Assembly (NCBI GenBank): GCA_944320495.1
Contig: CALUHR010000009.1
Coordinates: 64,001 to 128,000, forward strand
Direction of reading: 5' to 3'
DNA: 64,000 nucleotides
From: Candidatus Methanomethylophilaceae archaeon
Lineage (GTDB): Archaea; Thermoplasmatota; Thermoplasmata; Methanomassiliicoccales; Methanomethylophilaceae
The notes below the pieces were generated by a model. The model was given only the letters and a program-made list of their open reading frames with translations. It searched no databases and was not told where the DNA came from. Of the stretch, positions 8,408-63,874 are shown piece by piece; within the stretch, counting starts at the first letter, position 1, and the number at the start of each line of letters is the position of its first letter. The position numbers and the translations under genes are program-made.

Positions 8408-9061
8408 ATGTTCGATCTTTACGTCGTCACCGATTCCGACCTCTCCCGCGGACGCACCGACGCCGAGACGGCGCGTCTCGCCTACGAGGGTGGCGCCGAT
8501 GCGGTGCAGCTCAGGATGAAGCACACCGACGGAGGGGAGATGCTTGCCCAGGCGAGGGAGATCGCGGCGATGGCGCAGGAGATGGGACGGTTCTTCTTCG
8601 TGAACGATCGCGTGGACGTCGCCATGGCCTCCGGCGCAGACGGCGTCCATCTGGGTCAGTCGGACATCCCCGTGGGGACGGCGAGGAGGCTCATGGGGGA
8701 CGACGCGATCATCGGAGTCTCCGTGCAGACGGTCGAACAGGCGGTGGCCGCCGTCGAGGGCGGCGCGGATTATCTCGGCGTCGGGTCCATCTTCAGGACG
8801 TCGACCAAGCCCGACGCCGTCCAGGCGCTAGGACTCGGTGCCGTGTTCGAGATAAGGCAGGCCGTGGACGTACCGATTGTCGCCATCGGCGGGATAAACC
8901 GCGGGAACATCCAGGATGTCATACGCGCAGGAGCGGATGCGGCAGCGGTGGTCTCGGCCGTCGTCGCCCAGGACGATCCCCGTGCCGCCGCCCACGAGCT
9001 CAGGGATCTTATCCTCAAGGTCAGGCCGCACGTGGTCCCGGAGGAGGTCCCTGAGGACCGA
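8408..9061 (+). CDS. thiE: Thiamine-phosphate synthase
   Basis: LYVVTD, VQLRMK, VNDRVDVA, GVHLGQSD, TSTKPD, VAIGGIN, AVVSAV. In-frame CGA 9059-9061 after ...EEVPED; the standard-code stop TAA 9107-9109 lies inside the next gene's TATA-like element. Confidence 0.93.
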
Positions 9062-9097
9062 TCGTCCTCACACGCTTTCCGAGCGTCCCCTCCCTTC

Positions 9098-9109
9098 TTT
9101 AATATATAA
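9098..9109 (+). promoter_or_regulatory. TATA-like element for the 9130 gene
   Basis: TTTAATATATAA about 20-30 nt upstream of ATG 9130. Confidence 0.55.
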
Positions 9110-9129
9110 CAGAGGGCCTAGCCCCCTCC

Positions 9130-12873: not shown

Positions 12874-13254
12874 ATGGCTTTCGGATCCGGCGCTCCATCG
12901 GAGGAGTACAAGCTCGTCGTCCTCGTAAGGACGGATCTCGACATGGGCAAGGGCAAGATCGCGGCCCAGGTCGGTCACGCCTCGGTCGAATGCGCCCTGA
13001 GGGCCGAGAAGAAGGACAAGCGCGCCTTCGACATCTGGATGAACGGCGGTCAGAAGAAGGTCGTCCTCAAGGTCGCCAACAAGGACGAGATGGTCCGCTA
13101 CATGTCCGAGGCCAAGAGCCGCGGGCTCTACGCGTGCATGATCACCGATGCCGGCCGCACCGAGGTCGAGCCCGGGACCAACACCTGCGTCGGCATTGGT
13201 CCCGCCCCCGGCTCCGAGATAGACCGCGTGACCGGCGGCCTCAAGATGCTCCGA
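12874..13254 (+). CDS. pth2: Peptidyl-tRNA hydrolase Pth2
   Basis: KLVVLVRTDLDMGKGKIAAQVGHA, QKKVVLK, DAGRTEV, GIGPA..IDRVTGGLKML then CGA (13252-13254); standard-code stop only at 13356. Confidence 0.95.
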
Positions 13255-14590: not shown

Positions 14591-16279
14591 TCGGACCGAC
14601 TCGATCCTGCATGCGAAGATCGCATCCTCCGGGTGATGCCCTTCGGACGTGTCCCCGATCTCGAAGGAATCCCCGCTGGTCTCGCAGAGGACGAACCTGT
14701 ACCCCAGTATCTCGATGCCGTATCCGGGGGCGTCCAGATCCACGGCGGGCATCGCATGGTCGTCGAAGAGCAGGAACGCCGTCCGATAGCCGGAGAGGCC
14801 CATGATCGTGCCGAACAGGAACGTGGTGTCCTCGCAGTCCCCGCCACCGTCCCACAGGGTCTCCACCGGGAACTTCCAGTACTCATGGGATCCGCGCGTG
14901 TCGATGTCCTCCAGGTACGGCACCGACTGGACGAACTCGAGGACGAACTCCGCGTACTGCAGCCTGTCCAGCCCGGAGCCGAGCTCCATCAGCTTCTCGG
15001 CCATCCTGACGATGACGGGGTCGTCCGGCGTGTAGAACGTCTCCATGTGGGACTGGTAATGCTGTGCGAACCTGGGAAGGGTCGGATCATCATACTCATG
15101 GGCGTACGCCTGGCTGAGGAACACCGTGTCGGAGTACCGGTACCTGATGCCGTCGTACACCCAGGTGAATGAGAACGTCCTCTCGTCCTCGATGAGGAAC
15201 TCGAGGGTGGTGGTGACGCCGTCGATGGCCTTGGTCGCCGTGTACAGCCCCGGGGACTCAGGGCGTGCGACTGCTCCTCCCGAGGCATCGGTGATCTCCG
15301 CGTCTCCGAACCCCATGTCGATGACGTCCTGGAAGCCACTGACGACGACGTATCCGCTCGATGCGCAGGCGCGATAGACGTCGGACGGGGACGGCATGAG
15401 CACCGTGAGCGTGCGGTCGGTGGTGGCGAGGTGGCCGTTCACGTACCATCCCTCGAAACCGTCCCCGTAGGCGTACAGGAACAGCGGCTTGTTGGCATCC
15501 GCCTCCATGACCTCCACCGTCAGCGGATGGTCCGCGTAAACGTTCGGGGCGAACGATGTGTCCGGGTCGTAGCCGAAGACCTCTGTGGTCTCGTAGACGA
15601 CCGTCCCCTCGGTACCCATCCGGGATTCGATCATCATCGGAATCAGGAGGTCCTTGACCCACATGGTGTCGCCGCCCCTGGTCCAGACAGTGACCCTCTC
15701 CTCTCCCATGAACTGGTTGCCGGCGTACGTCCATCCGTCGGTGATGCTCCGGCACCAGCCGGAATGCGACGACCCGTCGGTCCATCCCCCGTCCGGCCAG
15801 GAGTAGAAGACGTTCCTGTCCTGGCTCACCAGCGCCATGCCGTCCCTGACGGTGTCGTAGCCCCAGGTGACGGTCCCCTCGACGGTGTGCGGGATGTCCC
15901 CGTTCCTGTACTCGCCGAAGACGTCCATGGTCCATCCGGTGCCCACGCGCGTGTCCTCCACCCATTTGGCGTAGAGGATGATGTGACCGCGGAGATCGGG
16001 GCTTATCGCCATGATGGGGTTGGTGAGAGCGGCCTCGGTGCACCATCCGGCGAACCAGTACCCTTCCCTCTCGGGGATGGGCAGGGTCGCGGAGGATCCC
16101 GCCACGTAGTATCCCGGGGCGTCCGTCGGAAGGGTTCCCCCGTCCGTGCGGTAGCTGATGTAGAACCTCTCGCCGTCCCGGACCTCCGTGTCGTCCAGCA
16201 CGGTGGTCGCGACGACCGCGGATGCGAGCGTGGCGAACGCCAGGGCAATGGCGACGGCGGCCAGCACGGACTTCCTCAT
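14591..16279 (-). CDS. Exported protein: signal/TM, InlB B-repeat-like segment, C-terminal transglutaminase-like domain
   Basis: MRKSVLAAVAIALAFATL; LPIPEREGYWFAGWCT..ILYAKW; YWKFPVETLWDGGGDCEDTT and DHAMP..ETS. In-frame CGA 14593-14591; the standard code would run to 14186 across the thiM promoter and 5' end. Confidence 0.82.
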
Positions 16280-20811: not shown

Positions 20812-21426
20812 ATGTCGCCCATCCTCCTCTCTCCCGGCAACAGGCTGGTGACGGTCTTCGGAGGGGGTAGGGTCGCCCTTCGCAAATGCCGCCATTTTGA
20901 CGGATTCAGGATACGCGTGGTCTCCGAGGAGGTCATGCCCGAGCTGAGGGAGCTGGCGGAGGAGGTCCTCATCGATTCCATCGACAGGGACAACGTCCTG
21001 CGCTACATCGAGGGGTCCGACATCGTCGTGGCCGCCACGTCCGACCACGCGCTCAACGATATGATAAGGGACACCGCTATGTCCCGGGGGATAATGACCA
21101 ACTCCGCCCACGGCGGAGGGGACGTCCTAATACCATCGACCCTCCACAGGGACGGCTGGACGGTCTGCGTGTCATCCGAGGGTCGCGTCCCGGCGTTCCC
21201 ACCCTATGTGATCGAGAGGATCGACGAGATGCTCGACCCATCGTACGATGCGATGCTGGCACTGCTGGTCGACCTGAGGGTCGTCATAAGGGAGAGGATA
21301 CCCACGCAGCCAGGTAGGGCGGAGTTCCTCGCAGGGGTGCTCGCAGATGAGGACGTCTGGGACCTCCTGAGGGAGGGCCGCGGCGGGGAGGCGAGGGAGC
21401 TGGCTCTCGCGAGGGGAGGTCTCCGA
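20812..21426 (+). CDS. sirC: Precorrin-2 dehydrogenase
   Basis: VTVFGGGRVALRK, VVAATSD; ends CTC CGA TGA, with the A of CGA starting the hemA ATG (CGATG). Standard-code stop 21429. Confidence 0.85.
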
Positions 21427-29895: not shown

Positions 29896-30669
29896 ATGAT
29901 ATTCGTCTTCTCCGGCACGGGGAACTCGTACGCGGCCGCCAAGCGCATCTCCGAAGCCATCGGCTCCGGCATGATCGACATCGCCGCGGCGGTGAGGTAC
30001 AAGCGCTACACCTACGACGCCAAGGGAGAGCCCGTCGGGTTCGTGTTCCCCACCTACTACTACGGGCTCCCGCGCATGGTCCTCGAGTTCGCCAGGAACG
30101 TCACAGTCCTGAACCCCGGCAGGGTGTTCGCCGTGACCACCTGCGGGGAGGAGTCCGGAGGGGCCTGCGAGATGCTCGCCGAGGAGCTCGGCAGTCGTCT
30201 GAGGGTCGATGCATCCTACGACGTGGTCATGCCCGACAACTCCGTCTTCGCCTTCGACCCCCCGACAAAGGAGCAGGCGGAGGAGACGCTGAGGGCCGCC
30301 GACGCCGAGATCGACCGCATCATAGGGTCCATCAAGGCGGGTGAGTCGGGAGACATGTGCGCCCACAAGGGTGACAAGGACTGGAGGGAGATCTATGCGC
30401 TCTACGACGAGCAGCGCGTGACGGAGCCCTTCAGGATCACCGACGCCTGCATCGAGTGCAGGATCTGCGAGGACATCTGCCCGGAGCAGATCATCAAGGT
30501 CTACCACAGGAAGCCGGTCTGGGACGAGGAGAAGTGCTCCCTCTGCATGGCCTGCATCCAGATGTGCCCCAAGGGGGCGATAGAGTACGGCGATGCCACG
30601 GTGAACCGCGGCAGGTACTACAACCCAATCTTCTACGAGAGGACCATCGGGATACCGCTGAAGTACCGA
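29896..30669 (+). CDS. EFR1-family ferrodoxin (flavodoxin + 2x[4Fe-4S])
   Basis: VFSGTGNS, GFVFPTY, MPDN, CIECRICEDICP, CSLCMACIQMCP; CGA 30667-30669 after ..IPLKY; standard-code stop 30717. Confidence 0.9.
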
Positions 30670-40223: not shown

Positions 40224-41321
40224 ATGGACTCGAGAGGAAAAAGGGAGGTGCTGGAGGGACTTTATGGCCCGATGTCCAGATCCATCAGGAAAATGCGGGG
40301 GCTCAGACCGGGCAAAGGGACAGTGGAGCTCCTCGATTTGCCGATGCTGACATTCCTCCAGTGGATCAAGGATTACGGCAACTGCAGTGCGGAATGCAGG
40401 ATCATCCCAAGCAACGACAAGTACGGACTTGCGGCGACGTTCGAAGACATCCAGGTCGATGTTGGGAACTTCAGGAGAAGGGGACAGGCATATGATGACG
40501 ATCAACCTGAGGATGACATCCTCCTTCCAGTATTCGTCGGTGACGAACTCCAACGCTTCTTGAAAGATGACGACGGCCTCCGGTGCCCGGTCCTGCATGG
40601 CCATCCGATGTGCATCGTGGACTTCAGTCAGCTGTTGCCTTACCGTTTCACTGAGGATGCGAAGTCCGGCATATCGCCTCACACCCTTGAACCAGGGACC
40701 ATTTGGATGAGGGCAGAGAGCATCCTGGAAAAGACCCTGAGTCTCATATGGCTGACATCAATGATCGATTTCGATGGAGACCGGGAGTTGCTAAGACTGG
40801 GATGCCCCGTATTGTCATCAAATCCGCCCCCTCCGAAGCAATACGATGTGGAATCCAAGGTGGTGATAATATTCGGGTCCATAGGTAGCTTGGATTCCGA
40901 GTACTACAACCTGAAAGGTAATGACAAGTTCGGTCATCTGGATGCTAACGGACTGAACAACACATACGTCTTCGAACATGATGGCATGCACATCCGTCAT
41001 TACAGGGTCCTGAGCGACGATCCCCGGAATTTGAATAGTCATGATCTCAACGGGAGCATCGGAGAGAGGGTCCTACCAAATATGCTGAAAGATGCCAGAG
41101 ACACCGATGAGATCGGTGTGAAGAGAACAGTCGTCGTCATAGGCCGCACGGACGTCGAGGTTGCGCTGTGGATCATGAAGCAATGCGATTCCCTGGGGCT
41201 GACATACGATACGGCACGTAATCTGGACGAGGGAGGCAAAATGAGCCTGTTCTTCCTCAAGTGCTCTCAACTCTTCGAGAGGGAGAGATCGCTCTCCGGA
41301 GTCGATGGTCCGACCCTTCGA
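40224..41321 (+). CDS. Hypothetical protein (island)
   Basis: AT-richer codon usage; alternative start 40143 (ATGA overlap); ends CTT CGA TGA. Confidence 0.7.
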
Positions 41322-42615: not shown

Positions 42616-43095
42616 ATGAAAGACAGCAAGGACAGGGTCAGGAAGATGCTCCAGAAGCAGAATGCCAGAATCAAGGAGGAGACGGAGGACACCATCAAGT
42701 TCATCCCCGATCTCAACGAGGGGTTCTGTCCTCCCGTCATGGTCCGCATCTGGGACGACCATGTGATGTTCATCACCGAGCTCAAACCAGATGTTCCAGA
42801 GAAGGCGAGGCAGAAGGTCTCCGGACTGGTGCATGACTTCAACAAGCGTAACTCAGAGGGGGTGCTGGACTACGACATGGAGGATGGCCAGGTATGGGTC
42901 AGGACCTGGGAGCGTGTGGGAAACGGCCGCAGATTCGGGCCGAAGGACCTCGAGTACCATATCCGCCTGGCCAGGGAAATCTCGTCCTCGGTGACGCCGA
43001 AGATATTCGTGGCATGCTCGGGCATCGATGCCGACCCGGATGAGAACGGGGGATGCACCCCTGGAGGGGACGATCCGTCCGTCATGTACGGACGA
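42616..43095 (+). CDS. YbjN/T3S-chaperone-like protein
   Basis: VRIWDDHVMFITEL..LVHDFNKRNSEGVLDYDMEDGQVWVR..DLEYHI; ends DDPSVMYG then CGA. Fused to VirD4 under the standard code. Confidence 0.65.
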
Positions 43096-46851: not shown

Positions 46852-47586
46852 ATGTTCTCCGTTCCCGAAGTGGTCGAACCATTCTACTGGGGGCGCCTCC
46901 GCTACACGTCCGAGAGGGAGGCGTACTCTCGCATAAGATCCGCCATGATCGGAGGGTCCGCCTCCGTCGGGGTGGAGGACCTCCGTCTCACTACCGGGAT
47001 GATGCTCGATGTGAGCGACGCCATCTATCTGGACGATCCCATGCTCTTCCACTGTCGCATAGACTCCTGGGATCTTATCGACGGGATGGCCACGGAGGTC
47101 TTCATCACCCAGCACTACACCGAGGCCGCGCGCGCATCGATGCGCAGGGCCATCGGGGATGCGCTCTCCGACGCCTACTACGGATGCCTGCGCGGGGCCC
47201 CCGACATCTTCACAGCAGAGAGGGCGGTCCTGAGATGGCTCAGGGGCAACGTCGTCTACGACATCAAGGAGGCCGATGACAGCATCCCTGAGCACGAGTA
47301 TCGCTCCGTCGTAGGGGCGCTGGTGCACCGCAGGGGCGTGTGCTCATCGATCTCGATGGCCGCCTCGCTCATGCTGAACGCCTGCGGTTTCAGGACGATC
47401 TGCGTAGTCGGGACGTCCCAGGGGGAGGGACACATGTGGGATGCCATCAGAACGCCGTCCGGATGGCTGCATTCTGATTTCACCTTCGCCTTAGGCGCAG
47501 ATGACGTCACATATCTGGACATGGACGACAGGTCCTGCGCCGTCGACCACGAGTTCGACATAGAGCTCCGGGATTACTGGGCGCGA
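46852..47586 (+). CDS. Transglutaminase-like protein with intact Cys-His-Asp triad
   Basis: RGVCSSIS, GHMWDAI, WLHSDFT; CGA 47584-47586; standard-code stop 47874. Confidence 0.82.
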
Positions 47587-47623: not shown

Positions 47624-49450
47624 TCGGTCCCCCTCCTCGAACTGCGCGTCATGGAGGGTCCGGTAGTATCCGCCGAGCTCCAGCAGCTCCTCGTGCGTGC
47701 CGGATTCGACGATCTCCCCTCCCACCATCACCAGTATCCTGTCGGCGTTGCGGACGGTCGACAGTCTGTGAGCGATCACGAACGACGTCCTTCCGCCGGT
47801 CATCAGGTCCATCGCCTGCTGGATGCGCTTCTCGGTGCGGGTGTCCACGGAGCTCGTCGCCTCGTCCAGTATGACCATGGGGGCGTCCTTGACTATGGCA
47901 CGGGCGATGGCGATCTGCTGCCTCTGCCCCACGGACAGGCCTCCCCCGGACCCTATCACGGTCTGATACCCGTCGGGGAGCGAGCGGATGTACTCATCGA
48001 TCCCGACGGTCCTGCAAGCCTCCTCCACCCTCTCGGGCGTGGCCCCGGGGCTGGTGAACGCCACGTTGTCGTAGACTGTCCCGTCGAACACCCACGAGTC
48101 CTGGAGGACCATGGAGAACTGCTCCCTCACCTGGTCCCTCGACAGCGATGACGTGGGCACACCGTCTATGAGGATCTGCCCGGACCACGGGTCGTGGAAC
48201 CTCATCAGCAGGTTGACCAGGGTGGTCTTCCCCGCTCCCGTGGGACCGACGATGGCGATGGTCGATCCCGGCTCCACGGTCAGGTCCAGTCCGTGGATGA
48301 CCTCCACGTCCGGACGGTATCCGAAATGGACATCCCTGAATTCGACCCTGCCCTCGGCCCTGGAGAATCCCGGGAGCCTCGGGTCGTCCTCCATCTCCGG
48401 GAGGGCGAGGAACTCGAACACGCGTTCCGATGCGGACGCCACGGACTGCATCCTGGCGATGACGTCCGCCAGCTCCGCGATCGGCTGGTTGAACTTCTTT
48501 ATGTAGACGATGAAGGCCGCTATCACACCGTAGGTGGCCGACCCCTCGATGATGAGGACGGATCCTGCGACGCATACCATAACGTAGCCCAGGTTGCTGA
48601 TGAAGTGCATCAGCTGGGGCATCATGGAGGTGATGACCCTCGCCCTGAACGACGAGCGGAACAGCTCCTCGTTGACCCCGTCGAACTCCGCGCGGCTGTT
48701 GTCCCAGTTGTCGTACGTCCTGACTATGTCATGGCCGTAGTAGACCTCCTCCACTATGGCGTTGATCCTCCCGAGGTCCCTCTGCTGGGCCACGAAGAAC
48801 CTCTGGGTGCGGTGCGTGACCACCCAGAGCGCAGCCATGCCGAACAGCGTGGGGATCACCGCCACCAGCGCGAGTTGCCAGCTGGTGAGGAGCATCATCA
48901 CGATGGCACCGATCATGGTGAAGACGGCGTTGATCGTGTTGGAGAAGCTCTCGGCCGAGCCGCTGCGGACCGTGTCCGTGTCATTGGTCATGCGGCTCAT
49001 CAGGTCGCCGACCTGGTGCGACTCCAGATAGGAGAACGGCAGGCGGTAGAACTTGGACGACAGGTCCTTGCGCATCCGGTCTCCGACCCTCTCGGAGGCG
49101 GTGCCGATGATCCTCGACGCCGACGAGTCGAACAGGAAGCTCAGGCCGTAGATGGCCACCAGGATGATGCCCAGCGTCCCGACCCATCCCGTGTCCACGC
49201 GGCCGTGGTCCGGGTCCAGAATGGATGCGGAGATCTCGTCGGTCATCATCTCCAGGAACTGTGGGCCAACCAGCGCCAGGAGCGTCCCGGCCAGCGTGCA
49301 CGCCATGCCTAGCAGGACCGCGCGACGCTCCCTGCCCATGTACGCGAACAGGTTCGCCATCGCCTGTCCCAGGTCCTTGGGCTTGTCGGAACCGCGGGTC
49401 CATCTCGGGCCCTTGGGCTGCGTCCTTGCTCCGGGCTCGGTGCTCGACAT
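47624..49450 (-). CDS. ABC exporter, TMD+NBD subunit 2
   Basis: GPTGAGKT, LSVGQRQQ, ILDEATSS, IAHRLS; CGA 47626-47624 after QFEEGD; standard-code stop 47507. Confidence 0.92.
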
Positions 49451-52804: not shown

Positions 52805-52927
52805 ATCTCAAAATTCAATAATAATATTTGATTATTTTAGAATTATGAGATGAATTTGGTTGGTGGGATTGATGTAAGCACTGACCCAGCTGCAAAACGT
52901 CGTAATCCCGTAGGGGTGGGGAAAGGC

Positions 52928-52954
52928 GGCCAAGGGGAACCAGGCCCCTTGGCC
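52928..52954. terminator. Inverted repeat downstream of the cbi operon
   Basis: GGCCAAGGGG-AACCAGG-CCCCTTGGCC. Confidence 0.55.
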
Positions 52955-52986
52955 AAGCAAGCTCATCAAAAATCGAATCCCGATTC

Positions 52987-54357
52987 TCGGTCGATCGTTC
53001 TCTCGCGTCCTCTGGAGTCCCTGTACTCGGCGCATCTCCTGAGGAACCCTAACGGAACCTCCGGGTTCGAGTAGTAGTACATGTGGGGGTACCCGGCGAG
53101 GAGCGTCCCGGTGTCGTTGATGCACCTGTACGTGGTCTCCCTCTTGGAGGCCTCCCAGTCGTCCCCGTTGGACTCGCTGTCCCAATAGTGGAACTCGTGC
53201 CCCTTGACGACCGGCCTGGACCCCATCATCCCGTCCTCGTCGACGGGCTGCAGCGTCACATAGCCGAACCTGCAGAGCTTCCCCGTGTTCCAGGTCCTGC
53301 CGGGTATGGCGCCCACCATGTACCTCTCGACCCCGTCCCCGTCCTCCATCCTCTCGTGGAGGTACATGAACCCGCCGCATTCGGCGATGCATGGCATGCC
53401 CGAGGCAATCGCATCGCGGATGTCGTCCAGCATGGAGCGGTTGGACTCCAGCTCCTCCCCGTGGAGCTCCGGGTACCCTCCGGAGAGGACGATGCCGTCC
53501 ACGTCCGAGAGATGCTCGTCTTGCATGGGCGAGAACCTGACAATCTCGGCGCCGCACCTCTCTAGCAGCTCGATGTTGTCCTCGTAGGTGAAGCAGAACG
53601 CGTCATCGTCGGCAAGGCCGATCCTCACCGTCCCGTCGACCCTCCCGACCGTGGGAGCGGAGTACTCCAGATTCGGCGCGGAGCGCGCCATCTCCAAGAT
53701 GCCGTCGATGTCCACGGTCCTCTCCAGCTCCTGTCCGAGCCTCTTCAGCCTGTCCCTGAGCTCCTCCACTTCTCCGGGCAGGACCAGTCCGAGATGCCGG
53801 CTCTCCAGCACGAGGTCCTTCAGCTTCGGGACGTATCCGAGAGGTCTGATGCCCATCCTCTCGGCCTCCGGCGCCAGGGCCTCGTAGACCCTCTGGGACA
53901 TCTGGTTGAAGATGACGCCGGAGATTCTGTTGGGGCGGAAGTCCTTGAATCCTTTCAGCACCGCGAGCGTGGAGAGGGACGCTCCCCTGGAGTTCACAAT
54001 CAGGATGACCGGTATGTCCAGCTTCTCCGAGACGTCGTAGGAGCTGGCGTCGGTCCCTGTGAAGTCGACCCCGTCGTAGAATCCCATCACACCCTCGACC
54101 ACGGAGACGTCGCATTGCTCCGCGGTCCGGCCGAATAGATATCTCAGCGTCCGGGCGTCGACGAAGTAGGCGTCCAGGTTCTTCGATCTGGCGCCGATAA
54201 CGCGGGAGTGGAACATGGGGTCGATGTAGTCCGGACCGCATTTGAACGAGGCGACACTCAGTCCGCGGTCGACCAGGGCCTGCAGGAGGCCGCAGGTGAT
54301 CAGAGTCTTCCCGCTGCCGCTGGCGGGCGCGGCGATCATGAACCTCGGAAGGCTCAT
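52987..54357 (-). CDS. cbiA: Cobyrinate a,c-diamide synthase
   Basis: ASGSGKT, FKCGPDYIDP, VEGVMGFYDG, LESRHLGL, AFCFTYEDN, GGYPE, AECGGFMYL, GHEFHY; CGA 52989-52987, TGA 52966. Confidence 0.93.
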
Positions 54358-56339
54358 CTGCCCCTCACCACCGCGATGTAGACGGGGTTCTGCCCGAACA
54401 TGAGGTGGTACGAGCCGAGCTTCTTGGAGCGGGCGACTGTGACGTTGATGATGTCCTCCTCCACGAGCCCCAGATCCCTTATCACCTGGGCGGTCTCGGC
54501 TATGGTCTCTATGGTCACGGAGTTGATTACGATGCGGACGTCGGGGTTCTTGTCCAGCAGGCACTGCACGATCTGCTTCAGGTTGCCCGACGAACCACCG
54601 ATGAACGCGTGTGTGGGGGACGGGAGGTCGGCCATCGCCTCCGGAGCCAGGCCCCTGACGATCTCCAGGTTGGGGGTCTTGAATCTTCTCTTGTTGATCT
54701 CGATGAGGTCCGCCGCGGCATCCTCCTTCTCGATGGCGTAGACCCTCCCGTTAACCGCGGTAAGGGCCATCTCGATCGACACGGACCCGGTGCCGGCGCC
54801 GACATCGTAGACGACGGAGTCGTCGCAGAGCTTGAGCTTGGCCACGGACAGCGCGCGGACCTCCGACTTGGTCATGGGGGCATCCCCCCTGACGAACTCC
54901 TCGTCGGGTATGCCGACGGGGTTCCTCCTGTCGGGGCTCCCGTTGTAGATCATTGCCACGCACAGGTCCCCGAAGGAGTGTGCCAGCAACTCGTCCGGTG
55001 ATCCTCTGACGATCCTCTCGGACGGGTATCCGAAGTCCTGGCCGATGGCCACTTCGACGTCCATCCCGTATTCGGACAGCTGGGAGCACATGGCGTGGAC
55101 GGTGTCCTCGCCGGAGAGGAGGGTGAAGACCTTCGCATGGGTGTTCGCCAGCCCCACGATGTTCGCGTCGCGGCCGTGGGCGCTGGTGACGTACGCATCG
55201 CTCCACGTGTCTCCGAGCTTCGAGGCGAAGTACACGAGGGACGAGATCCCGCATTCCACGTCGACTTCGTACTCCTCCGGGTCGAGGGCCTGCAGGAGCT
55301 TCGTAGCGCCGCTGTAGAATCCGGTGTCGCCGGAGAGCAGCACCGCTGCATCCGTGAACTGCGGATGGGAGTCCAGATACCCGCGGATGGCGTCAGCCCT
55401 GTATTCCACGAGGACCTCTTTGCTGGACGTGTCGATGGATTCCACCATGCGTTTGGCGCCGATCACGAGGCCGCATCCGGCCACCCTCGCGGCTGCCCTC
55501 TGGGTCATGTCCCCGGGGCCCATGCCGATGCCTACGAGGGCGACCCTGCGTCTCTCCTCCGATGGGGTCTCCGCATCCGTGTGGTCCAGTCCTAGTCTGT
55601 CGTCCAGCATCCTAACAACCTCTCCATAATCGTGGCCCGACTCGGCGGGCCTGCTGATGAGCACGATCTTCGCACCTGCGCGTCTGGCGGCGCGGACCTT
55701 CTCCTCGAATCCGCCGATCGTTCCTGAATCCTTGGTGACGAGCCATCTCGCACCTGCGCGCCTCAGCGCGGCCAGGTTCTCCTCCTCCGTGAACGGCCCC
55801 TGGGCGGCGATGAGGTGCGACCCCTCGAATCCGAGCGACACGGCCTTCCCCATGGATTCGCCTGTGGAAAGGACGCGTGCCGTGAGTCTCTCCCGGTAGT
55901 CTGGTATCTCCGTGTACAGGTGGAGCTCGTTGGACCCGGTGGAGACCAGGACGTTGCCCTCGGTCCCCTTCAGGAACTCCACGGCATCCTTCACGGAGGG
56001 GACCTCCACTATGTCGTCCGGCGCGCATCCGCCGTCCCTGACGAGCCTGATGCATTCGACTCCCGCCTCGGAGCACCCCTCGCGGATGTGCTCCGATATC
56101 CTCCTGGCATAGGGATGGGTGGCGTCGACGACCAGGCCGTAGCCGCAGTCGCGGATCACCCTGGCTATGCCCTCGGCCCCGCCACAGCTCCCGACCTGTA
56201 CGTCCACGCCGTCCTCCTCCATGACCACTGCCCCGTACTCGGTGGCGACGCGCACATGGACGGGCACGCCTCTGGAGTGGAGGTATCTGGCTACGGCCCT
56301 GCCGTCGGCGGTCCCGGAGAAGACCAGAACGTCGGTCAT
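54354..56339 (-). CDS. cbiJ-cbiET: Triple fusion: cobalt-precorrin-6A reductase + CbiE + CbiT
   Basis: VFSGTADGR, VDATHPYA, LVTKDSG..GG (CbiJ); LVGIGMGP, LLSGDTGFYS (CbiE); PMTKSEVR, YDVGAGTGSVS, AFIGGS (CbiT). Confidence 0.9.
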   Translation of the reverse strand: MTDVLVFSGTADGRAVARYLHSRGVPVHVRVATEYGAVVMEEDGVDVQVGSCGGAEGIARVIRDCGYGLVVDATHPYARRISEHIREGCSEAGVECIRLVRDGGCAPDDIVEVPSVKDAVEFLKGTEGNVLVSTGSNELHLYTEIPDYRERLTARVLSTGESMGKAVSLGFEGSHLIAAQGPFTEEENLAALRRAGARWLVTKDSGTIGGFEEKVRAARRAGAKIVLISRPAESGHDYGEVVRMLDDRLGLDHTDAETPSEERRRVALVGIGMGPGDMTQRAAARVAGCGLVIGAKRMVESIDTSSKEVLVEYRADAIRGYLDSHPQFTDAAVLLSGDTGFYSGATKLLQALDPEEYEVDVECGISSLVYFASKLGDTWSDAYVTSAHGRDANIVGLANTHAKVFTLLSGEDTVHAMCSQLSEYGMDVEVAIGQDFGYPSERIVRGSPDELLAHSFGDLCVAMIYNGSPDRRNPVGIPDEEFVRGDAPMTKSEVRALSVAKLKLCDDSVVYDVGAGTGSVSIEMALTAVNGRVYAIEKEDAAADLIEINKRRFKTPNLEIVRGLAPEAMADLPSPTHAFIGGSSGNLKQIVQCLLDKNPDVRIVINSVTIETIAETAQVIRDLGLVEEDIINVTVARSKKLGSYHLMFGQNPVYIAVVRGR

Positions 56340-57364
56340 AGGAACCTCGCCTCCACTCTCTTCGAACAGATAGCGATGGTCATGCCGTCCCTGGGGGTCT
56401 TGCGGAGCACGAACTCCTCCCCTCCGGCGATGACGGCCGAGCGCTCGCAGACGCAGTCGACGTCGGTGACGCTGCTCACGAACTCCGATCTCGAGAACTC
56501 TCCCTCGAGGGAGTTGAGCTCCTCCGCGGAATGGAACGATGCCGGCACCCTCAGGCGCCTGGCCAGCTCGAGTATGGCCTCCTCGTCCCTCTTGATGTCT
56601 ATGCTGGAGACGGCGGCAACCCTCTGGCGGGCGATGCCAAGGCCATCCAGCGTCGATTTGACGAAATCCCACAGCTTCGCGGGGTCGGTCCCGCGTTTGC
56701 AACCCACTCCCAGTACGATGTCCTGCGGCACGAGGTTGAGAGTGACATCGAACGGCTTCTCCCCCGGATCGGATGATATGCAGACGCCCAGCTCTCCGGA
56801 GTCTGCGGGTGTTATGCCGTCCGGGAGATCGCCCCCCACGGGGATGTTCGAGCGGAATCCCACGAACCTCCCGTCAAGAACCCTGGCCGAGACGTCCTTG
56901 GCGATGGCCATGCTGGAGATCCTCATGCCGTTCCTGGAGGCGAAGGTGTCCACCGAGAACTTCCCGTTCAGGTCCGTGGCGGTGGTGATTATCGGTTCGG
57001 AGCCCATCCTGTCCGCTATCCTGGCGGTCAGCTCGTTGCATCCGCCGATGTGTCCGGACAGGAGAGCCACCGCCCAGCGACCGTGCTCGTCCATGCAGAC
57101 GACCGCGGGGTCCGTGGTCTTGCTCCTCACGTAGGGGGCGATGTATCTCACCGCGATGCCGATGGCTCCGATGTAGACGATGGCGTCGCATTCGTTCCAT
57201 GAGGCCCCGGTCCACTCGCCCACCTTGCCCTCTATCCTCTCTACGCCAAGGCTGTCCGACGTGGTCTTGCAGTAGATCCTGACGTCGTCCTCCCTCAGCG
57301 CCTCCTTGAGCCTCAGCGCCGTCCTGCACCCGTTGGTGGAGAAGGCGACCGCGTCGATCCGCAT
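56336..57364 (-). CDS. cbiG: Cobalt-precorrin-5A hydrolase
   Basis: GIAVRYIAP, DPAVVCMDE, LLSGHIGG, ITTATD, GVGCKRG, CVCERSA. Confidence 0.93.
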   Translation of the reverse strand: MRIDAVAFSTNGCRTALRLKEALREDDVRIYCKTTSDSLGVERIEGKVGEWTGASWNECDAIVYIGAIGIAVRYIAPYVRSKTTDPAVVCMDEHGRWAVALLSGHIGGCNELTARIADRMGSEPIITTATDLNGKFSVDTFASRNGMRISSMAIAKDVSARVLDGRFVGFRSNIPVGGDLPDGITPADSGELGVCISSDPGEKPFDVTLNLVPQDIVLGVGCKRGTDPAKLWDFVKSTLDGLGIARQRVAAVSSIDIKRDEEAILELARRLRVPASFHSAEELNSLEGEFSRSEFVSSVTDVDCVCERSAVIAGGEEFVLRKTPRDGMTIAICSKRVEARFL

Positions 57365-58509
57365 CGCAGCTCCCTCCTGACCTCGTCGAGGAGCTCGTCC
57401 GCCAGGCTCGTCTTGCCCAGCAGTCCGTATGCCGACGAGAACATCACAGCCCCCGTCCGGATCCTTCCGCCAGTGCGGTGGTTCATATGGAACTCTATCT
57501 TCTCGACAAGGAGCTTCGAGACCTCGGGGATCAGCCCCTCCCTGTCGATCACGTCCAGGGCGTCGTCCGTGGATATGCACCCCATGATCTCCCTGACGCA
57601 GTCCATCGACGCTCCCGCAATCGCCGCGTTGGCGGCGAGGATCTCCATCCTGGCATCGGCGTTGCGCGAATGCGTGTTCATGATGCCGCCGGCGAGCTTG
57701 ACCATCTTGCCCAGATTGGATACGAGGACGATGTCCACGCCCAGCTCCACCGCGCAGTCGAGCATCTCGCCGACGAAGTTGCTGCATTTGACGGCGAACT
57801 CGGGGTCGATCCCGTCGATCCCCTCGGAGAAGTCCCTGCCGTAATTGCCAGGCACAACCAGCAGAACCTTGTTGCCGTCGGCGGCGCGCACCCTCATCTC
57901 GGTGCGGATAGTCTCCACCAGGGCGGTCTCGCTCATCGGCTCCACTATGCCGCTCGTCCCGAGGATGGAGATCCCCCCCTCGATTCCGAGGCGGGGGTTG
58001 AACGTCCTCTCCGCAATCTCCGTTCCAGCCGGGACGGATATGACCGCCCTCAGGCCCCCGGTGTATCCCATCGCGGATGACACGTCCTCCAGGGCCTCGC
58101 GGATCATGGACCTCGGGACGCGGTTTATGGCGGCGTTGCCAGGCGGCTGGTCGAGCCCCTTGCGGGTCACCCTTCCGACCCCGACTCCGCCGTCTATCTC
58201 GATCCCCTCGGGGATCATGGACACCTCAGAATAGACGAGAGCACCGTGGGTGGCGTCGATGTCGTCGCCGCCGTCCTTCCTGACGGCACAGGATGCCGTT
58301 TCCCCATCGATCCTGAGGTCCTCGACGGGCAGGTCCAGGACTATGCCCTTGGGGGTCGTGATGCTGACCGTCTCCACGGGAGTTCCCAGGAGCGCCATCG
58401 CCGCCGCCTTGCTGGCAGCGGTCGCGCAGGTCCCGGTGGTGTGGCCCCTTCTAAGACGCTTGTTGTTCACATAGACGTACATCTCGTCGGGTCTGGGGCC
58501 TAGGGTCAT
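57364..58509 (-). CDS. cbiD: Cobalt-precorrin-5B C1-methyltransferase
   Basis: LRRGHTTGTCA, KDGGDDIDAT, GGVGVGRVT, AINRVPR, NPRLGIEGGISILGTSG, KLAGG..NTH; ends with CGA overlapping the cbiG ATG; standard-code stop 57313. Confidence 0.95.
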
Positions 58510-58592
58510 CTCTCGTCTCCTGCAGTTGGATGAATATACCAACACTTATATTATTCCCGACGCTACCCTGAAAGCAGGAAGAGTGGTCTGTG

Positions 58593-59309
58593 ATGGCTGG
58601 AAAGCTTTACGGAATCGGCGTCGGACCCGGGGATCCCGGTCTCCTGACGCTCAGGGCCAAGGAGATCCTTGACGGATGCGGGATCATCGCGTATCCCGTT
58701 CGCAAACTCGGGGAGGGTAGCACGGCCTTCGACATCATCAAACAGGTCGTGGACGTCTCCGAGAAGAGCGTCGAGGAGTTCCTCTTCGACATGAACCCCG
58801 ACGATTCCGTCCGCGAGAGATGCCGCGAGGAGGCCATGGAGAAGATGTGCATGCTCCTGGACAACGGGGAGGACATAGCCATGGTCACCCTCGGGGACGC
58901 GGGCGTGTACAGCACCTACATGTACATCGACGCCGAGATCAGGTCCCGCGGATACGAGACCGAGGTCATCCCAGGGATCCCGTCCTTCTGTCACGGTGCC
59001 GCCCTGGCCGGCGTTCCGCTCATGATAGGGAACGAGGGCCTCGCCGTCGTGCCCGTCGCCAAGGAGAACACCGCTCTTCTGAGGGACGCCCTCCGGAACT
59101 TCGACAACGTCGTGGTCATGAAGGCGTTCAAGTCCATGCCCCTCATAGCCGAGACCATGGACGAGTTCGGCATCCCCCGCGAGGGTGCCACCGTTGTGAG
59201 CAACGTCGGGATGGAGGGCGAGTACATCGGCCCCATGGACGACGACCGCAAGTACGGCTACTTCACGACGGTCATCATCAAGAAGAACAAGGGAGGCAGA
59301 GAGATATGA
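58593..59309 (+). CDS. cbiL: Precorrin-2 C20-methyltransferase
   Basis: LYGIGVGPGDPGLLT, TLGDAGVYSTY, IPGIPSF. Confidence 0.92.
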   Translation: MAGKLYGIGVGPGDPGLLTLRAKEILDGCGIIAYPVRKLGEGSTAFDIIKQVVDVSEKSVEEFLFDMNPDDSVRERCREEAMEKMCMLLDNGEDIAMVTLGDAGVYSTYMYIDAEIRSRGYETEVIPGIPSFCHGAALAGVPLMIGNEGLAVVPVAKENTALLRDALRNFDNVVVMKAFKSMPLIAETMDEFGIPREGATVVSNVGMEGEYIGPMDDDRKYGYFTTVIIKKNKGGREI

Positions 59310-60061
59310 TCTCGTTCATCGGAGCCGGACCCGGGGACCCGGAGCTCATCACAATAAAGGGAAAGAGGCTTATCGAGCAGGCAGACGTAATCATCTACGC
59401 CGGATCGCTGGTCAACCCGGACGTTCTGGAGGGCCACAAGGCCGGCGCGGAGATCTACAACAGCGCCCTGATGGACCTCGACGAGGTCATCGCCGTCATG
59501 GAGAAGGCCGAGAGGGAGGGCAGGAAGGTCGTGCGCGTGCACACCGGGGACCCCGCCATCTACGGCGCCCACAGGGAGCAGATGGACAGGCTCGACGAGC
59601 TCGGGATAACCTACGAGGTCATCCCCGGCGTGTCCTCCGCCTTCGCCACCGCGGCCGCCCTAAACGCGGAGTACACGCTCCCCGGGAGGAGCCAGACCGT
59701 CATATTCACCAGGATGGAGGGGAGGACCCCCATGCCGGAGCGCGAGAAGCTCCCGGACCTGGCGAGACACCACGCCACCATGGTCATCTTCCTGTCCATC
59801 GGATTCATGGACGAGATGGCCAGACAGCTCCAGGAAGGCGGATACGAGCCCACCACGCCCGTCGCCGTGGTCTACAAGGCGTCCTGGCCGGACCAGAGGA
59901 TCGTCCGCGGGACCCTGCAGGACATCGCCCAGAAGGTCAAGGATGCGGGCATCACGAAGACCGCCCTGACGGTCGTCGGCGAGTTCCTCTGCGAGGACCA
60001 CGAGCTCTCCAAGCTCTACGACAAGCACTTCACAACCGAGTTCCGCAAGGCGAAGGAGTGA
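59306..60061 (+). CDS. cbiF: Precorrin-4 C11-methyltransferase
   Basis: IGAGPGDPELIT, RVHTGDPAIYGA, SQTVIFTR, YKASWPDQ, SKLYD. Confidence 0.95.
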   Translation: MISFIGAGPGDPELITIKGKRLIEQADVIIYAGSLVNPDVLEGHKAGAEIYNSALMDLDEVIAVMEKAEREGRKVVRVHTGDPAIYGAHREQMDRLDELGITYEVIPGVSSAFATAAALNAEYTLPGRSQTVIFTRMEGRTPMPEREKLPDLARHHATMVIFLSIGFMDEMARQLQEGGYEPTTPVAVVYKASWPDQRIVRGTLQDIAQKVKDAGITKTALTVVGEFLCEDHELSKLYDKHFTTEFRKAKE

Positions 60062-60066
60062 TCCGG

Positions 60067-60816
60067 ATGGCGAAGGGAAGGCTACACGTGGTCGGGTTCG
60101 GACCCGGCGGGAAGGACGACATGACGTTCCGCGCCGCGCGTGTCATAGAGAACGCCGACGTGGTCACCGGATACACGACGTACATCAATCTCCTGAGGCC
60201 GATCTTCCCGGACAAGGTCTACAAGGCCACCGGGATGATGAAGGAGGTCGAGCGCTGCAGGATGGCCATAGAGGACGCCGTGTCCGGGAAGGACGTGGCG
60301 ATGGTATCATCCGGAGACTCCGGCATCTACGGCATGGCGGGGATCATCTATCAGCTGGCGGACGAGATGGGCGCCGACATCGAGATCGACACCGTCCCCG
60401 GCATCACCGCCGCATCGTCTGCCGCATCCATCCTGGGCGCACCGCTGATGCACGATCTGGTCATCGTCAGCCTGTCGGACCTGATGACGCCCCTGGACCT
60501 GATCATGGACAGGGTCGGGAAGGCGGCCGAGGGCGACTTCATCACATGCATCTACAATCCCAAGAGCAAGACCAGGACCGAGTACCTGGGCATGGCGAGG
60601 GACATCCTTCTGAAGCACCGCTCGCCGGAGACCCCGGTCGGCATCGTCAGGAACGCCGGCAGGGAGGACCAATCGAGCAAGGTCACCACCCTGGGCGGTC
60701 TCGACCCCGCGGACGTGGACATGTTCTGCATCGTGATCGTCGGGAACTCGCAGACGTACGTGTCCAACGGCCGCATGATCACACCCAGGGGCTACAGGAT
60801 CCAGGGAGGCGAGCGA
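60067..60816 (+). CDS. cbiH: Precorrin-3B C17-methyltransferase
   Basis: VVGFGPG, VSSGDSGIYGMAG, PGITAA, APLMHD, SLSDL, YNPKS, ITPRGY; CGA 60814-60816; standard-code stop 60999. Confidence 0.95.
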
Positions 60817-60817
60817 T

Positions 60818-61459
60818 TTGACCATCGAGATAGTGAGACCCGAGGACATCGAGAAGCGCAGCATGGAGATCATAACATCGGAGCTCAACGGCCGCACCTG
60901 GCCGGAGCCCCAGTTCTCCATCGTGAAGAGGTGCATCCACACCTCCGCCGACTTCGACTACGCGGACAACCTGGTGTTCTCCGACGGGGCGGCGGATAAG
61001 GGCGTCGCCGCCATCCGCGCCGGTGCGGACATCGTCACGGACACCAAGATGGCCGCCGCGGGCATCAACAAGAGGAAACTCGGGGCCTACGGGGGGAGCG
61101 TCCACTGCTACATCAGCGACGAGGACGTCATGGCTGAGGCCAAGGGCCGCGGATGCACCCGCGCGACCATCTGCATGGAGCGCGGCGCGGACGTCGGCAT
61201 GGAGAGGCCCGTCATCTTCGCGATAGGCAACGCGCCTACCGCGCTGGTGAGGCTCTGCGAGCTGGTGGAGGAGGGCAGGGTGAAACCTGCTCTCGTCATC
61301 GGTGCGCCCGTCGGATTCGTCAACGTCGTCGAGTCCAAGGAGATGACCATGGAGACCATGGAGAGGCACGGCATCCCGTACATCGTCCCCAAGGGCAGGA
61401 AGGGCGGCTCCAACATCGCGGCCACCATATGCAACTCGATGATCTACTTCAAGGGTTGA
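60818..61459 (+). CDS. cbiC: Precorrin-8X methylmutase
   Basis: IEKRSM, RCIHTSADF, AIGNAPTAL, IGAPVGFVNV, GRKGGSNIAA; TTG start with GGAGG upstream. Confidence 0.95.
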   Translation: MTIEIVRPEDIEKRSMEIITSELNGRTWPEPQFSIVKRCIHTSADFDYADNLVFSDGAADKGVAAIRAGADIVTDTKMAAAGINKRKLGAYGGSVHCYISDEDVMAEAKGRGCTRATICMERGADVGMERPVIFAIGNAPTALVRLCELVEEGRVKPALVIGAPVGFVNVVESKEMTMETMERHGIPYIVPKGRKGGSNIAATICNSMIYFKG

Positions 61460-61512: not shown

Positions 61513-62529
61513 TCAGGGCGCATCCGATGGCCGGGACTCCGTCCCGTCGGCATAGCGTATGAACCTCCCGGTTCCCAGAGGCTGGGCCTTGTCGATGATG
61601 TCCCAGGGCCATTCGAGGAACTCGTTCCTGCGGATCTCGTCGAGCGCCCTGCGGACGTCCTTCAGGTCCCCCAGGTAGACCGGGCCGTACGAAGCCATCT
61701 TCTGGCCGATCGGCCTCCCCTCAAGGAGCCAGAACACGGATTCGGTGTCCCCGTTCTCTATGGTGAATCCGCCGAGGTCCGAGAACTTCATCCTCGTGTA
61801 GAAGTCGACTTCGGTGTCGCAGACCTTCGCCTTGTCCCCCGACACGAAGTAGAGGTTCCTTCTCGCCCCGTCGGCGGCGGGGTCCACATCCATGCGGGCC
61901 CCGGGATCCATCCTGATGCGGAGGATCCTCACTCCGTTGGCGATCCGGGCGTATGATGTGGAGCTGGGGGATTCCGCCTCCCTGCCTCCGAACCTCCCGC
62001 AGACGACCTTGACGTCCCATCCGTCCTCCGAGATGACGGGGACGTCCCCGCTCCATACGGTGCTGACCGAATTGGGACTGTTCTTCATCTCCAGCGGCAG
62101 GTTCACCATGATCTGGGTGATGTCATTGGGGTTTCTGTCCTCCTGATTGACCAGAGGGTACATCTCGCAGTGCTCGTACTTCGACGACGCGGAAACCCAT
62201 TGCACGTCCCCGAAGCCGAATCTCCCTTGGATCCCCTCGGTGTCGAAGTGGTCCACGTAGCCCTTCTCTGCGAGGGTGACGGTCTCGTAGCCCCAGTGGG
62301 CGTGCATCGGGAACCCGGGCACGACCTTCCCGTGGTACATCCTGAACCCGAGGCGCTGAGTGTAGTCCCTGCCGAGGTTCCTTCCCGAGATCTCGTTCAG
62401 AGGGGGAGCCTGCTGGCGGTTCCCATGAGGGTAGTCGTCCTCGTGATGGGATGCGAAGATGAAAGGGTCCTCGGTGTCCCAGTGCATCCCGAGCCCCGAT
62501 GTCTTGAACGGCTTCCTCCCGGAGAACAT
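61513..62529 (-). CDS. Pirin-family cupin
   Basis: DPFIFASHH, GFPMHAHWGYETVT, HCEMYP. Confidence 0.88.
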   Translation of the reverse strand: MFSGRKPFKTSGLGMHWDTEDPFIFASHHEDDYPHGNRQQAPPLNEISGRNLGRDYTQRLGFRMYHGKVVPGFPMHAHWGYETVTLAEKGYVDHFDTEGIQGRFGFGDVQWVSASSKYEHCEMYPLVNQEDRNPNDITQIMVNLPLEMKNSPNSVSTVWSGDVPVISEDGWDVKVVCGRFGGREAESPSSTSYARIANGVRILRIRMDPGARMDVDPAADGARRNLYFVSGDKAKVCDTEVDFYTRMKFSDLGGFTIENGDTESVFWLLEGRPIGQKMASYGPVYLGDLKDVRRALDEIRRNEFLEWPWDIIDKAQPLGTGRFIRYADGTESRPSDAP

Positions 62530-62609
62530 GGAATCGCCATGCGCGTCGACGATTTAAACCGACCTGCGGGCGTCCCCGATATATACGTAGGGTGCCATGA
62601 GGAACGTCC

Positions 62610-63317
62610 ATGGACGGCACCCGTCTCAACAAGTACATCAGCGAGGCCGGCGTGGCCTCCCGCCGTGCGGCGGACAGGATGATAGAGGAGGGGAGGGTGA
62701 CCATCAACGGGCGCGTGGCCGTCGTCGGGGACAGGGTCTCCGAAGGGGACGTTGTTCGCGTGGACGGCAGAGAGGTCTCCGCCAAGGGCGGCGATGTCAT
62801 CATCGCGCTGAACAAGCCCCGTGGGATAACGTGCACGTCCAGCCCCGACGATCCGGACAACGTCATCGACTTCATCGGGTATCCAGAGAGGATATACTCG
62901 ATCGGACGTTTGGACAAGGATTCGGAGGGACTCCTCCTTCTGACCAACAACGGAGAGCTCGCCAACGCGATAATGAGGTCCCGCGGCGAGCACGAGAAGG
63001 AGTATCTGGTCACGGTGGACCACGACATCACGGACGCCTTCATCAAGAGGATGTCGTCCGGGGTCGAGATCCTCGGAAGGGTGACCAAGAGGTGCGAGGT
63101 CGAGAGGGTCTCAGACAGGGAGTTCCGCATCGTCCTGAGGCAGGGTCTCAACAGACAGATCCGCAGGATGTGCGGCACCCTGGGATACACTGTCCTGACG
63201 CTCAGGCGCGTCCGCATCATGAACGTCCGGCTGGGAGACCTGCCAGTCGGCAAGTACAGGGACCTGACGGATGAGGAGAGGGATGAGCTATGCAGGCAGG
63301 CGCTGGGTTCGAAGTGA
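62610..63317 (+). CDS. rRNA pseudouridine synthase (RsuA/RluF family) with S4 domain
   Basis: RLNKYISEAGVASRR, LNKPRG, IGRLDKDSEGLLLLTN, GLNRQIRRM. Confidence 0.92.
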   Translation: MDGTRLNKYISEAGVASRRAADRMIEEGRVTINGRVAVVGDRVSEGDVVRVDGREVSAKGGDVIIALNKPRGITCTSSPDDPDNVIDFIGYPERIYSIGRLDKDSEGLLLLTNNGELANAIMRSRGEHEKEYLVTVDHDITDAFIKRMSSGVEILGRVTKRCEVERVSDREFRIVLRQGLNRQIRRMCGTLGYTVLTLRRVRIMNVRLGDLPVGKYRDLTDEERDELCRQALGSK

Positions 63318-63874
63318 GGGAGATAACGATCGAGGACATACCGTTCCTCACGCCGATAGGCAAGGGTCAGCTCGGGGTGGACTACATCTCCGACGAGGAC
63401 TTCGAGAAGGCCATCTCCGATCCGGGGCAGTTCTGTCTCATCCCCGTCGTGGACGGCGTCCCCTCTGGATTCGCCATATGCAAGGAGTTCGGCCCCGAGT
63501 CCGAGCCCGAGGCGCTGGCGCTCCCAGATTCTGGATACAGGGACTGGGTCAGGTCCAGGAGCAGGATCGGCCTGGTGGACTCCGTCGCCCTGTCCCCGTC
63601 GGTCGGCGGAAGGGGGATCGGCAAGGCCCTCTGCGAGGCCTGTCTGGAGAGGTTCTCCGAGGACGGGTGCGATTCCGCGGTGTCGATGGCGTGGGTCCAT
63701 GAGGACGGCGTCGAGCCCATCAGGAAGGCGCTCACGCAGTCCGGTTTCGAGAGGACCGACCTCGTCATACGCGGCTACTGGAACTCCTGGGTCGACACCG
63801 AGGGGGGACACATGTGCCCCTACTGCGGCTCGCCGTGCAGGTGCTCCGGAGCCCTGTGGCGGAGATCGCTCTGA
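63314..63874 (+). CDS. GNAT-family N-acetyltransferase with C-terminal Cys cluster
   Basis: VALSPSVGGRGIGKAL (acetyl-CoA motif A); CPYCGSPCRC; GTGA overlap with the upstream gene. Confidence 0.82.
   Translation: MREITIEDIPFLTPIGKGQLGVDYISDEDFEKAISDPGQFCLIPVVDGVPSGFAICKEFGPESEPEALALPDSGYRDWVRSRSRIGLVDSVALSPSVGGRGIGKALCEACLERFSEDGCDSAVSMAWVHEDGVEPIRKALTQSGFERTDLVIRGYWNSWVDTEGGHMCPYCGSPCRCSGALWRRSL

Follow-up and report, generated by a model that had tools for sequence, protein, structure and literature searches.

In a stretch of 64,000 nucleotides from a chicken-gut methanogen (genus Methanoprimaticola, family Methanomethylophilaceae), 15 genes carry an in-frame CGA, an arginine codon in the standard code, at or near the point where the encoded protein should end. 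Our analysis suggests that CGA very probably ends translation at these gene ends, acting as a fourth stop codon that is weak and leaky. The stretch, referred to here as the window (G000:C9:64001-128000), is part of an assembly of 1.77 Mb with 62% GC in 14 contigs; G000 denotes this genome, and other G numbers denote the genomes compared with it. Public runs containing the stretch are for the most part chicken or bird gut metagenomes, from nine studies. The original prediction, made on the window, was that CGA had changed from arginine codon to terminator, and comparative evidence from the ends of orthologous genes and from the purge of CGA from gene interiors strongly supports this.

To describe CGA usage across the genome, we self-trained a codon model on G000 and took a confident set of 429 open reading frames (ORFs; 226,000 codons). 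Their stop-to-stop frames contain 719 in-frame CGAs, 594 of them scorable on both flanks, and only four to nine (nine of the 594, in about 200,000 codons) have coding-like sequence on both sides. Among informative in-frame CGAs, 87% mark a transition from coding to noncoding sequence, compared with about 2% for ordinary codons in an all-codon control; the codon with the next highest share, TTA, reaches 22% on only nine informative cases. CGA stands at gene ends far beyond chance, and it is absent from conserved positions inside genes. An earlier statement that no CGA occurs inside domains of the genes read codon by codon is borne out as a genome-wide near-absence, but it missed a few conserved read-through sites, one of them in the gene for the archaeal release factor aRF1.

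A simple gene caller, run with four stops (TGA, TAA, TAG and CGA), returned 1,613 genes, ending on TGA (1134), CGA (392), TAA (48) and TAG (39). After retraining, 383 of 1,572 genes ended on CGA, 297 of which had a clearly noncoding tail, and overall CGA ends about 24% of G000 genes. When applied to outgroup genomes, the same caller classed CGA as mostly internal (22/24, 33/40 and 51/65), compared with none internal in the window, which implies that the method can separate the two cases.

Among orthologues, CGA occurs at the ends of homologues and exchanges there with standard stops. The peptidyl-tRNA hydrolase gene pth2 ends on CGA in G000, G018 and G014, and on TGA in G016, G010, G006, G017, G005 and G015. 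Homologous DNA continues downstream of this codon in G014 (CGA TCG GCA) and G006 (TGA TCA GCA), so that the difference between them is a single T/C change. We extended this comparison to 13 relatives, obtaining 113 pairs (71 different G000 genes) in which a CGA end in G000 could be set against a standard stop in the relative. The CGA fell within two residues of the relative's TGA or TAA in 73% of pairs and within five in 84%, compared with 91% and 96% for control pairs with standard stops on both sides. If CGA was instead read through, the ends agreed in only 9 of the 113 pairs, with a median excess of 34 residues. The reverse case, in which a relative's CGA is set against a standard stop in G000, was seen in 18 pairs.

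The signals around these gene ends suggest a working but weaker terminator with a context of its own. The base following a terminal CGA is T in 54% of cases, compared with 13% for later in-frame CGAs of the same tails, 23% genome-wide, 32% in intergenic DNA and 29% after TGA. The share of genes ending on CGA falls from 39% in the lowest codon-adaptation quintile to 6.7% in the highest (Mann-Whitney p = 8e-28); highly codon-adapted genes avoid terminal CGA, as would be expected of a slower or leakier stop.

All 15 in-frame CGAs named for the window are present, in frame and on the strands given; the seven on the minus strand (14591, 41318, 47624, 49437, 52987, 57364 and 63866) appear as TCG on the plus strand. 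The claim that reading on would add junk tails running over neighbouring genes also stands: continuing to the next standard stop adds 1-581 codons, rich in Arg, Pro and Gly, which overlap adjacent genes. With CGA taken as a stop, gene order in the window turns ordinary. The sites are as follows.

9059..9061, plus strand: terminal CGA of thiE (TMP-TENI domain); 16 junk codons follow, then TAA at 9107.
13252..13254, plus strand: terminal CGA of pth2; the last of the 115 positions of the Pfam PTH2 profile is the residue just ahead of the CGA.
14591..14593, minus strand: terminal CGA of a 562-residue Listeria-Bacteroides-repeat protein; a junk tail of 135 codons would run into the genes that follow.
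21424..21426, plus strand: CGA of a sirC-like NAD-binding gene; TGA follows directly and the ATG of hemA overlaps, making the site uninformative alone.
30667..30669, plus strand: terminal CGA of a 4Fe-4S (Fer4) protein, called EFR1 in the original prediction; 16-codon tail.
41319..41321, plus strand: CGA of a 392-residue protein without a Pfam match; TGA follows directly, and the site is uninformative alone.
41318..41320, minus strand: terminal CGA of a convergent 277-residue gene without a Pfam match; 17-codon tail.
43093..43095, plus strand: CGA between a 159-residue gene and an in-frame VirD4/TraG coupling-protein gene with its own ATG at 43123; the CGA is as described, but the 159-residue gene, previously named YbjN-like, has no Pfam match.
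47584..47586, plus strand: terminal CGA of a transglutaminase-like protein; 96-codon junk tail.
47624..47626, minus strand: terminal CGA of ABC transporter 2 (ABC_membrane and ABC_tran); 39-codon tail.
49437..49439, minus strand: terminal CGA of ABC transporter 1; a tail of 152 codons would cover the start of ABC transporter 2 at 49450, 14 bases before this CGA.
52987..52989, minus strand: terminal CGA of a cbiA/cobB-type amidotransferase; 7-codon tail.
57364..57366, minus strand: terminal CGA of cbiD; one-base overlap with the ATG of cbiG (CGATG, compare the common TGATG stop/start overlap).
60814..60816, plus strand: terminal CGA of a cbiH-type methylase; a 61-codon tail would overlap cbiC, which starts at 60818, two bases after the CGA.
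63866..63868, minus strand: terminal CGA of a hydrolase whose gene is cut by the window edge (start beyond the end); a 581-codon open tail crosses several genes.

Part of the window (35500-47600) may be an integrated mobile element. It contains a VirD4/TraG-type coupling protein (43123-44562), a 956-codon ORF (37276-40146), the transglutaminase-like gene and several genes without a Pfam match, and our codon model made no call in 37276-41324, indicating atypical codon use. Genes of this stretch end on CGA (41318, 43093 and 47584), which shows that it follows the code of its host.

The share of genes ending on CGA varies strongly between species. Compared with 24% in G000, CGA ends were counted in 11/42 genes sampled from G010, 8/25 from G001, 9/87 from G018, 8/126 from G013, 5/89 from G004 and 5/70 from G043, and zero to two per sample were seen in G006, G066, G042, G059, G008, G015 and G007. 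Genomes of the genus that do not use CGA as a terminator contain 0-3 CGAs per 15,000-24,000 codons. In other families of the order, CGA is an ordinary arginine codon, at 39-161 per approximately 14,000-22,000 codons (68-161 per 15,000-22,000 codons in G019 and G020; 39-92 in G024, G025 and G027, with 23 in a smaller G027 sample of 3,160 codons). Within the family, the codon has nearly gone from the genera g10 (2/13,764 and 6/11,982) and g11 (2/18,103), is rare in g13 and g14, and is commoner in g12 and g15. In g10, at 56% GC, CGG outnumbers CGA twentyfold, so that base composition does not explain the loss. On these counts, the change in CGA looks family-wide in Methanomethylophilaceae, and its putative use as terminator of a quarter of genes is confined to some GC-rich Methanoprimaticola species.

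The original prediction attributed the change to loss of tRNA-Arg(UCG), but we found the gene in G000 and in every genome of the genus examined. Its anticodon arm is abnormal in all of them. In most of the genus, pair 31-39 is mismatched (A-A, C-A or U-C), with compensatory changes at the other four anticodon-stem pairs; G000 and G018 additionally carry U32 and C38. The tRNAs of G008, G015 and G007, located with a covariance model, have C33 for the near-universal U33, together with A37 and a C27-C43 mismatch. In outgroups from beyond family f1, the stem is normal, with a C31-G39 pair. The arginine identity base A20 is kept in tRNA-Arg(UCG). This combination, conserved but odd beside the anticodon, fits a putative weak suppressor. 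The idea that presence of the tRNA tracks use of CGA as a stop was dropped, as the apparent absences in G008, G015, G007, G006 and G042 proved false: the G006 gene is cut by a contig end, and G042 carries the tRNA. No tRNA-Arg(ACG) was found in G008, G015 or G007. Elsewhere in the family, G115, G086 and G077, from two other genera, show a mismatch at 27-43, at the top of the stem, not at 31-39, whereas the tRNA-Arg(UCG) stem is normal in G090, G073, G074 and G082, Methanomethylophilus-like genomes in which CGA is nonetheless nearly unused.

Fifteen CGAs in G000 have coding-like sequence downstream, and one of these lies in the aRF1 gene (G000:C2:85936-87165; ..DSIAA-CGA-LKTYK..), 21 codons past the Ser preceding the NIKS motif (position +21), equivalent to Arg81 (R81) of human eRF1. 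The codon is CGA in 21/21 genomes of the genus; its neighbours vary synonymously, and another Arg 21 codons downstream is encoded by AGG, CGC, CGT or AGA. In 74 public aRF1 genes of the family, 59 have exactly one in-frame CGA, located at +21 in 38, at -32 in 12 (Methanomethylophilus- and Methanoplasma-like genes) and elsewhere in nine (mostly at -46, in Methanogranum-like genes); the -32 and -46 sites, like +21, lie in the N-terminal part. In aRF1 genes from outside the family, which hold 0-5 scattered CGAs, the codon at the Arg81 position is AGG, CGC, CGT or CGG, the one exception being a CGA in G088. The Pelota gene has no internal CGA. The release-factor gene of these organisms consistently holds, early in its frame and against codon bias, the proposed target codon of the factor. 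Purged elsewhere and fixed in aRF1, CGA shows the pattern expected of an autoregulatory site.

The sequence around this CGA differs from that of real gene ends. Within the genus it is preceded by a rare GCT or TCT and followed by CTN and then mostly by a rare AAA, the next base being C in 20/20 cases. Synonymous sites 3' of the CGA vary freely and give no hint of a conserved RNA structure, and the frame runs unbroken through the codon, which would call for readthrough instead of a +1 frameshift with an upstream stimulator. In bacteria, an in-frame UGA in prfB autoregulates release factor RF2 through a +1 frameshift. By analogy, the aRF1 CGA looks like a prfB-type autoregulatory site: abundant aRF1 would terminate at its own in-frame CGA and so cut its synthesis, in a feedback loop without a frameshift. 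Both are release-factor genes with an early conserved codon proposed to be read by the factor and, because the context of the aRF1 CGA is unlike that of real gene ends, abundance of the factor could set its own synthesis in both. They differ in that prfB needs a +1 frameshift past UGA and a Shine-Dalgarno-like stimulator, whereas aRF1 would need same-frame readthrough as Arg; moreover, the aRF1 CGA has moved in the evolution of the family (+21, -32, -46).

A second conserved site joins two enzymes. GmhA (SIS) and GmhB (HAD) share one frame in G000 (G000:C13:193642-194700, minus strand) with a CGA between them at 194143-194145. Of 28 genomes of the genus, 23 have CGA at the junction (G011 one codon earlier), three have TAG and two have AGA, and no start codon for GmhB was found ahead of AVFIDRDD at these loci. 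A conserved putative stop thus stands between in-frame domains without a second start, the arrangement of programmed readthrough. Exchange of CGA both with the leaky stop TAG and with the plain Arg codon AGA is what one would expect if CGA is a leaky stop that can be decoded as Arg. The junction is likely a site of programmed readthrough, at which the choice between stopping and reading on would yield GmhA alone or a fusion protein.

Two further in-frame codons were noted. In G000, a flavodoxin-like gene carries a CGA (G000:C8:55685-55687, plus strand) within a conserved GKTI-R-PFCT motif, where G004 has AGG; the CGA is not conserved, C comes next, and the gene is either recently truncated or dependent on readthrough. 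Pth2 of G016 (G016:C12) has an in-frame TAG in its domain (..EPGS*TCVGIG..), at a position occupied by T, M, V or I in others, which may reflect pyrrolysine readthrough or a broken gene.

Taken together, these data point to a competition at CGA. An ordinary aRF1 would terminate at the codon, aided by a U after it, in competition with a retained but weakened tRNA-Arg(UCG), and at a few conserved sites (aRF1, gmhA/gmhB) CGA would be read through as Arg. The agent of termination is, in our view, probably aRF1 and not a rescue route. Across most of Methanomethylophilaceae, a family to which Methanomethylophilus, Methanogranum and Methanoplasma from enrichment cultures belong, we also lean towards a reading in which an unmodified-looking aRF1 reads CGA and the weakened tRNA-Arg(UCG) is kept only for programmed sites, chiefly aRF1 autoregulation.

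Several observations weigh against this interpretation. The whole case is one of sequence comparison. Public Logan contigs (X1; window 43000-61000) match the window exactly over sites 47624 and 49437, but they are sparse, of low depth and may derive from the source sample itself, and are too thin as an independent test of the sites. Backup stops are only weakly enriched after CGA (6.0% compared with 3.0% at the next codon; median distance 25 compared with 28 codons), and a cognate, apparently chargeable tRNA-Arg(UCG) persists. The release factor itself shows no visible sign of the change that had been proposed for it, acceptance of YGA: NIKS, YxCxxxF and GGQ are intact, the first two being as in outgroups that use CGA as Arg. 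Known structures show that NIKS selects U at the first codon position. An R-to-M substitution four residues after NIKS (human R68) is family-wide, but it also occurs in a genus still using CGA. In G000 and G018, aRF1 reads RGRSTELIS where all others have RGRGTELIS (Ser for G31 of human eRF1, in the GTS loop), and G001, with 8/25 CGA ends, has NIRS in place of NIKS. None of these changes explains reading of C at the first position.

We found one aRF1 and one Pelota per genome, and no second aRF1 or special paralogue. Pelota of G000 and G018 (G000:C1 ~21200-22300) itself appears to end on CGA, with the frame open for hundreds of codons, where Pelota of relatives stops at TGA after ~350 residues. 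Genes for aRF1 that are 75-92% identical to that of G000 also occur in public metagenome-assembled genome (MAG) records titled Ruminococcus sp. CAG:579, Bifidobacteriaceae, Lachnospiraceae, Prevotella hominis, Dialister hominis, Bacteroidaceae and Anaerovoracaceae, whose taxonomic labels look wrong.

The main rival explanation is that CGA is a hungry, effectively unassigned codon, at which the ribosome stalls until aPelota/ABCE1 splitting and peptidyl-tRNA hydrolase free the protein. The unaltered decoding motifs of aRF1 and the abnormal anticodon arm of tRNA-Arg(UCG) throughout the genus would both suit such a rescue route, as would the shunning of CGA ends by codon-adapted genes, expected if the route is costly, and Pelota and Pth2 are both present. 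Nevertheless, we regard rescue as unlikely. The single conserved in-frame CGA is in aRF1 and not in Pelota, which is hard to explain if aRF1 is inactive on CGA; U follows 54% of terminal CGAs, a context effect of a kind known for release factors; and CGA exchanges with TAG at the gmhA/gmhB junction. In addition, the cognate tRNA is under purifying selection, so the codon is not strictly unassigned, and rescue would presumably be costly for a quarter of all genes.

Editing of C to U in mRNA, turning CGA into UGA under the standard code, was raised in the original prediction and would explain why CGA and TGA replace each other at gene ends while decoding stays unchanged. It is very improbable. 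Genes contain many CGAs in their other two frames (8,710 cases of NCG followed by A and 34,302 of NNC followed by GA); at NCG followed by A, the standard residue matches that of orthologues in 68% of cases and the edited residue in 2.4%, compared with 66% and 2.5% in a control in which NCG is followed by another base, and this equality excludes context-free editing. The CGAs in aRF1 and gmhA/gmhB align with Arg or AGA. Only the ribosome senses frame. Frame-aware editing has, to our knowledge, no known mechanism, and we know of no mRNA C-to-U editing in archaea.

That CGA is still plain Arg with translated tails (stop-loss drift), or an assembly or base-calling error for TGA, we can practically dismiss: a tRNA-Arg(UCG) with A20 is present and five of the 15 sites have short tails (7-17 codons), but CGA is virtually gone from gene interiors while outgroups use it, tails can be hundreds of codons long and run over other genes, few orthologue ends (9/113) agree under readthrough, G018 and G014 share the CGA at the Pth2 end, and the occurrence of the trait in more than ten independently assembled species, including 'Ca. 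Methanoprimaticola sp. MG2' (~420x coverage according to its contig name), excludes assembly error.

In the literature, we found no description of a CGA stop in Methanomethylophilaceae and no established sense-to-stop code change outside organelles. Known organelle cases (NCBI tables 2, 22 and 23) are AGA/AGG in vertebrate mitochondria, UCA in Scenedesmus mitochondria and UUA in thraustochytrid mitochondria. As in G000, the sense codon vanishes from gene interiors and appears at gene ends, and in table 2 it likewise encodes arginine and has a first base other than U. Organelle genomes, however, are tiny, hold very few genes and depend on reduced tRNA sets and on release factors of bacterial type, whereas G000 is a free-living archaeon with ~1,700 genes, an eRF1-type factor, a retained cognate tRNA and conserved read-through sites. 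Green-algal organelle cases of sense-to-stop change are among those treated in two reports (PMC6821328, PMC12574857).

In yeast, eRF1/eRF3 competes with tRNA-Arg for CGA and detectably terminates there, and a lone CGA closing a gene is already read as a stop to a detectable extent (Wada and Ito 2018, PMC7379694), which makes a strong shift of this balance plausible here. The yeast event is a minor side reaction, and the sense codon concerned is rare and decoded slowly, whereas in G000 termination is the proposed main meaning of CGA in hundreds of genes. In pyrrolysine-encoding methanogens, UAG is ambiguous and leaky, being read as stop or pyrrolysine (PMC12626013); like CGA here, it has two outcomes through competition between aRF1 and a tRNA, but UAG is a standard stop gaining sense and CGA a sense codon gaining stop. 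A recent preprint reports that CGA is absent from recognisable domains in two Njordarchaeales assemblies and raises a stop as a possibility (Melnykov 2026, bioRxiv 10.64898/2026.04.02.715157); Methanomassiliicoccales are unmentioned there. That case differs in belonging to another phylum, in reassignment of CGG to Trp, in that no tRNA(UCG) was found and in having no evidence from gene ends, and the question was left open. For archaeal sense codons, Codetta has inferred the expected amino acid in 99.85% of cases and another amino acid in none, leaving 0.15% uninferred.

If this interpretation is correct, CGA in these archaea would provide three firsts among described cellular archaeal genomes: a sense codon turned into a stop, a stop codon beginning with C, and a codon by which a release factor regulates its own gene. 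It would be an exception to the rule that cellular stops are UAA, UAG and UGA only, and the eRF1-type decoding site would then need to tolerate C at the first position. Public gene calls in these gut methanogens would be wrong for up to ~24% of genes, with false C-terminal tails and hidden or shortened downstream genes, which touches protein databases, pangenomes and heterologous expression. Since the family is the source of widely used pairs of pyrrolysyl-tRNA synthetase (PylRS) and tRNA, its decoding quirks also matter to genetic-code engineering. The family itself forms a graded series, from genomes in which CGA has been purged, through those with one regulatory CGA in aRF1, to those in which it stands at up to a quarter of gene ends, and such a series can show how the meaning of a codon may change via an ambiguous intermediate.

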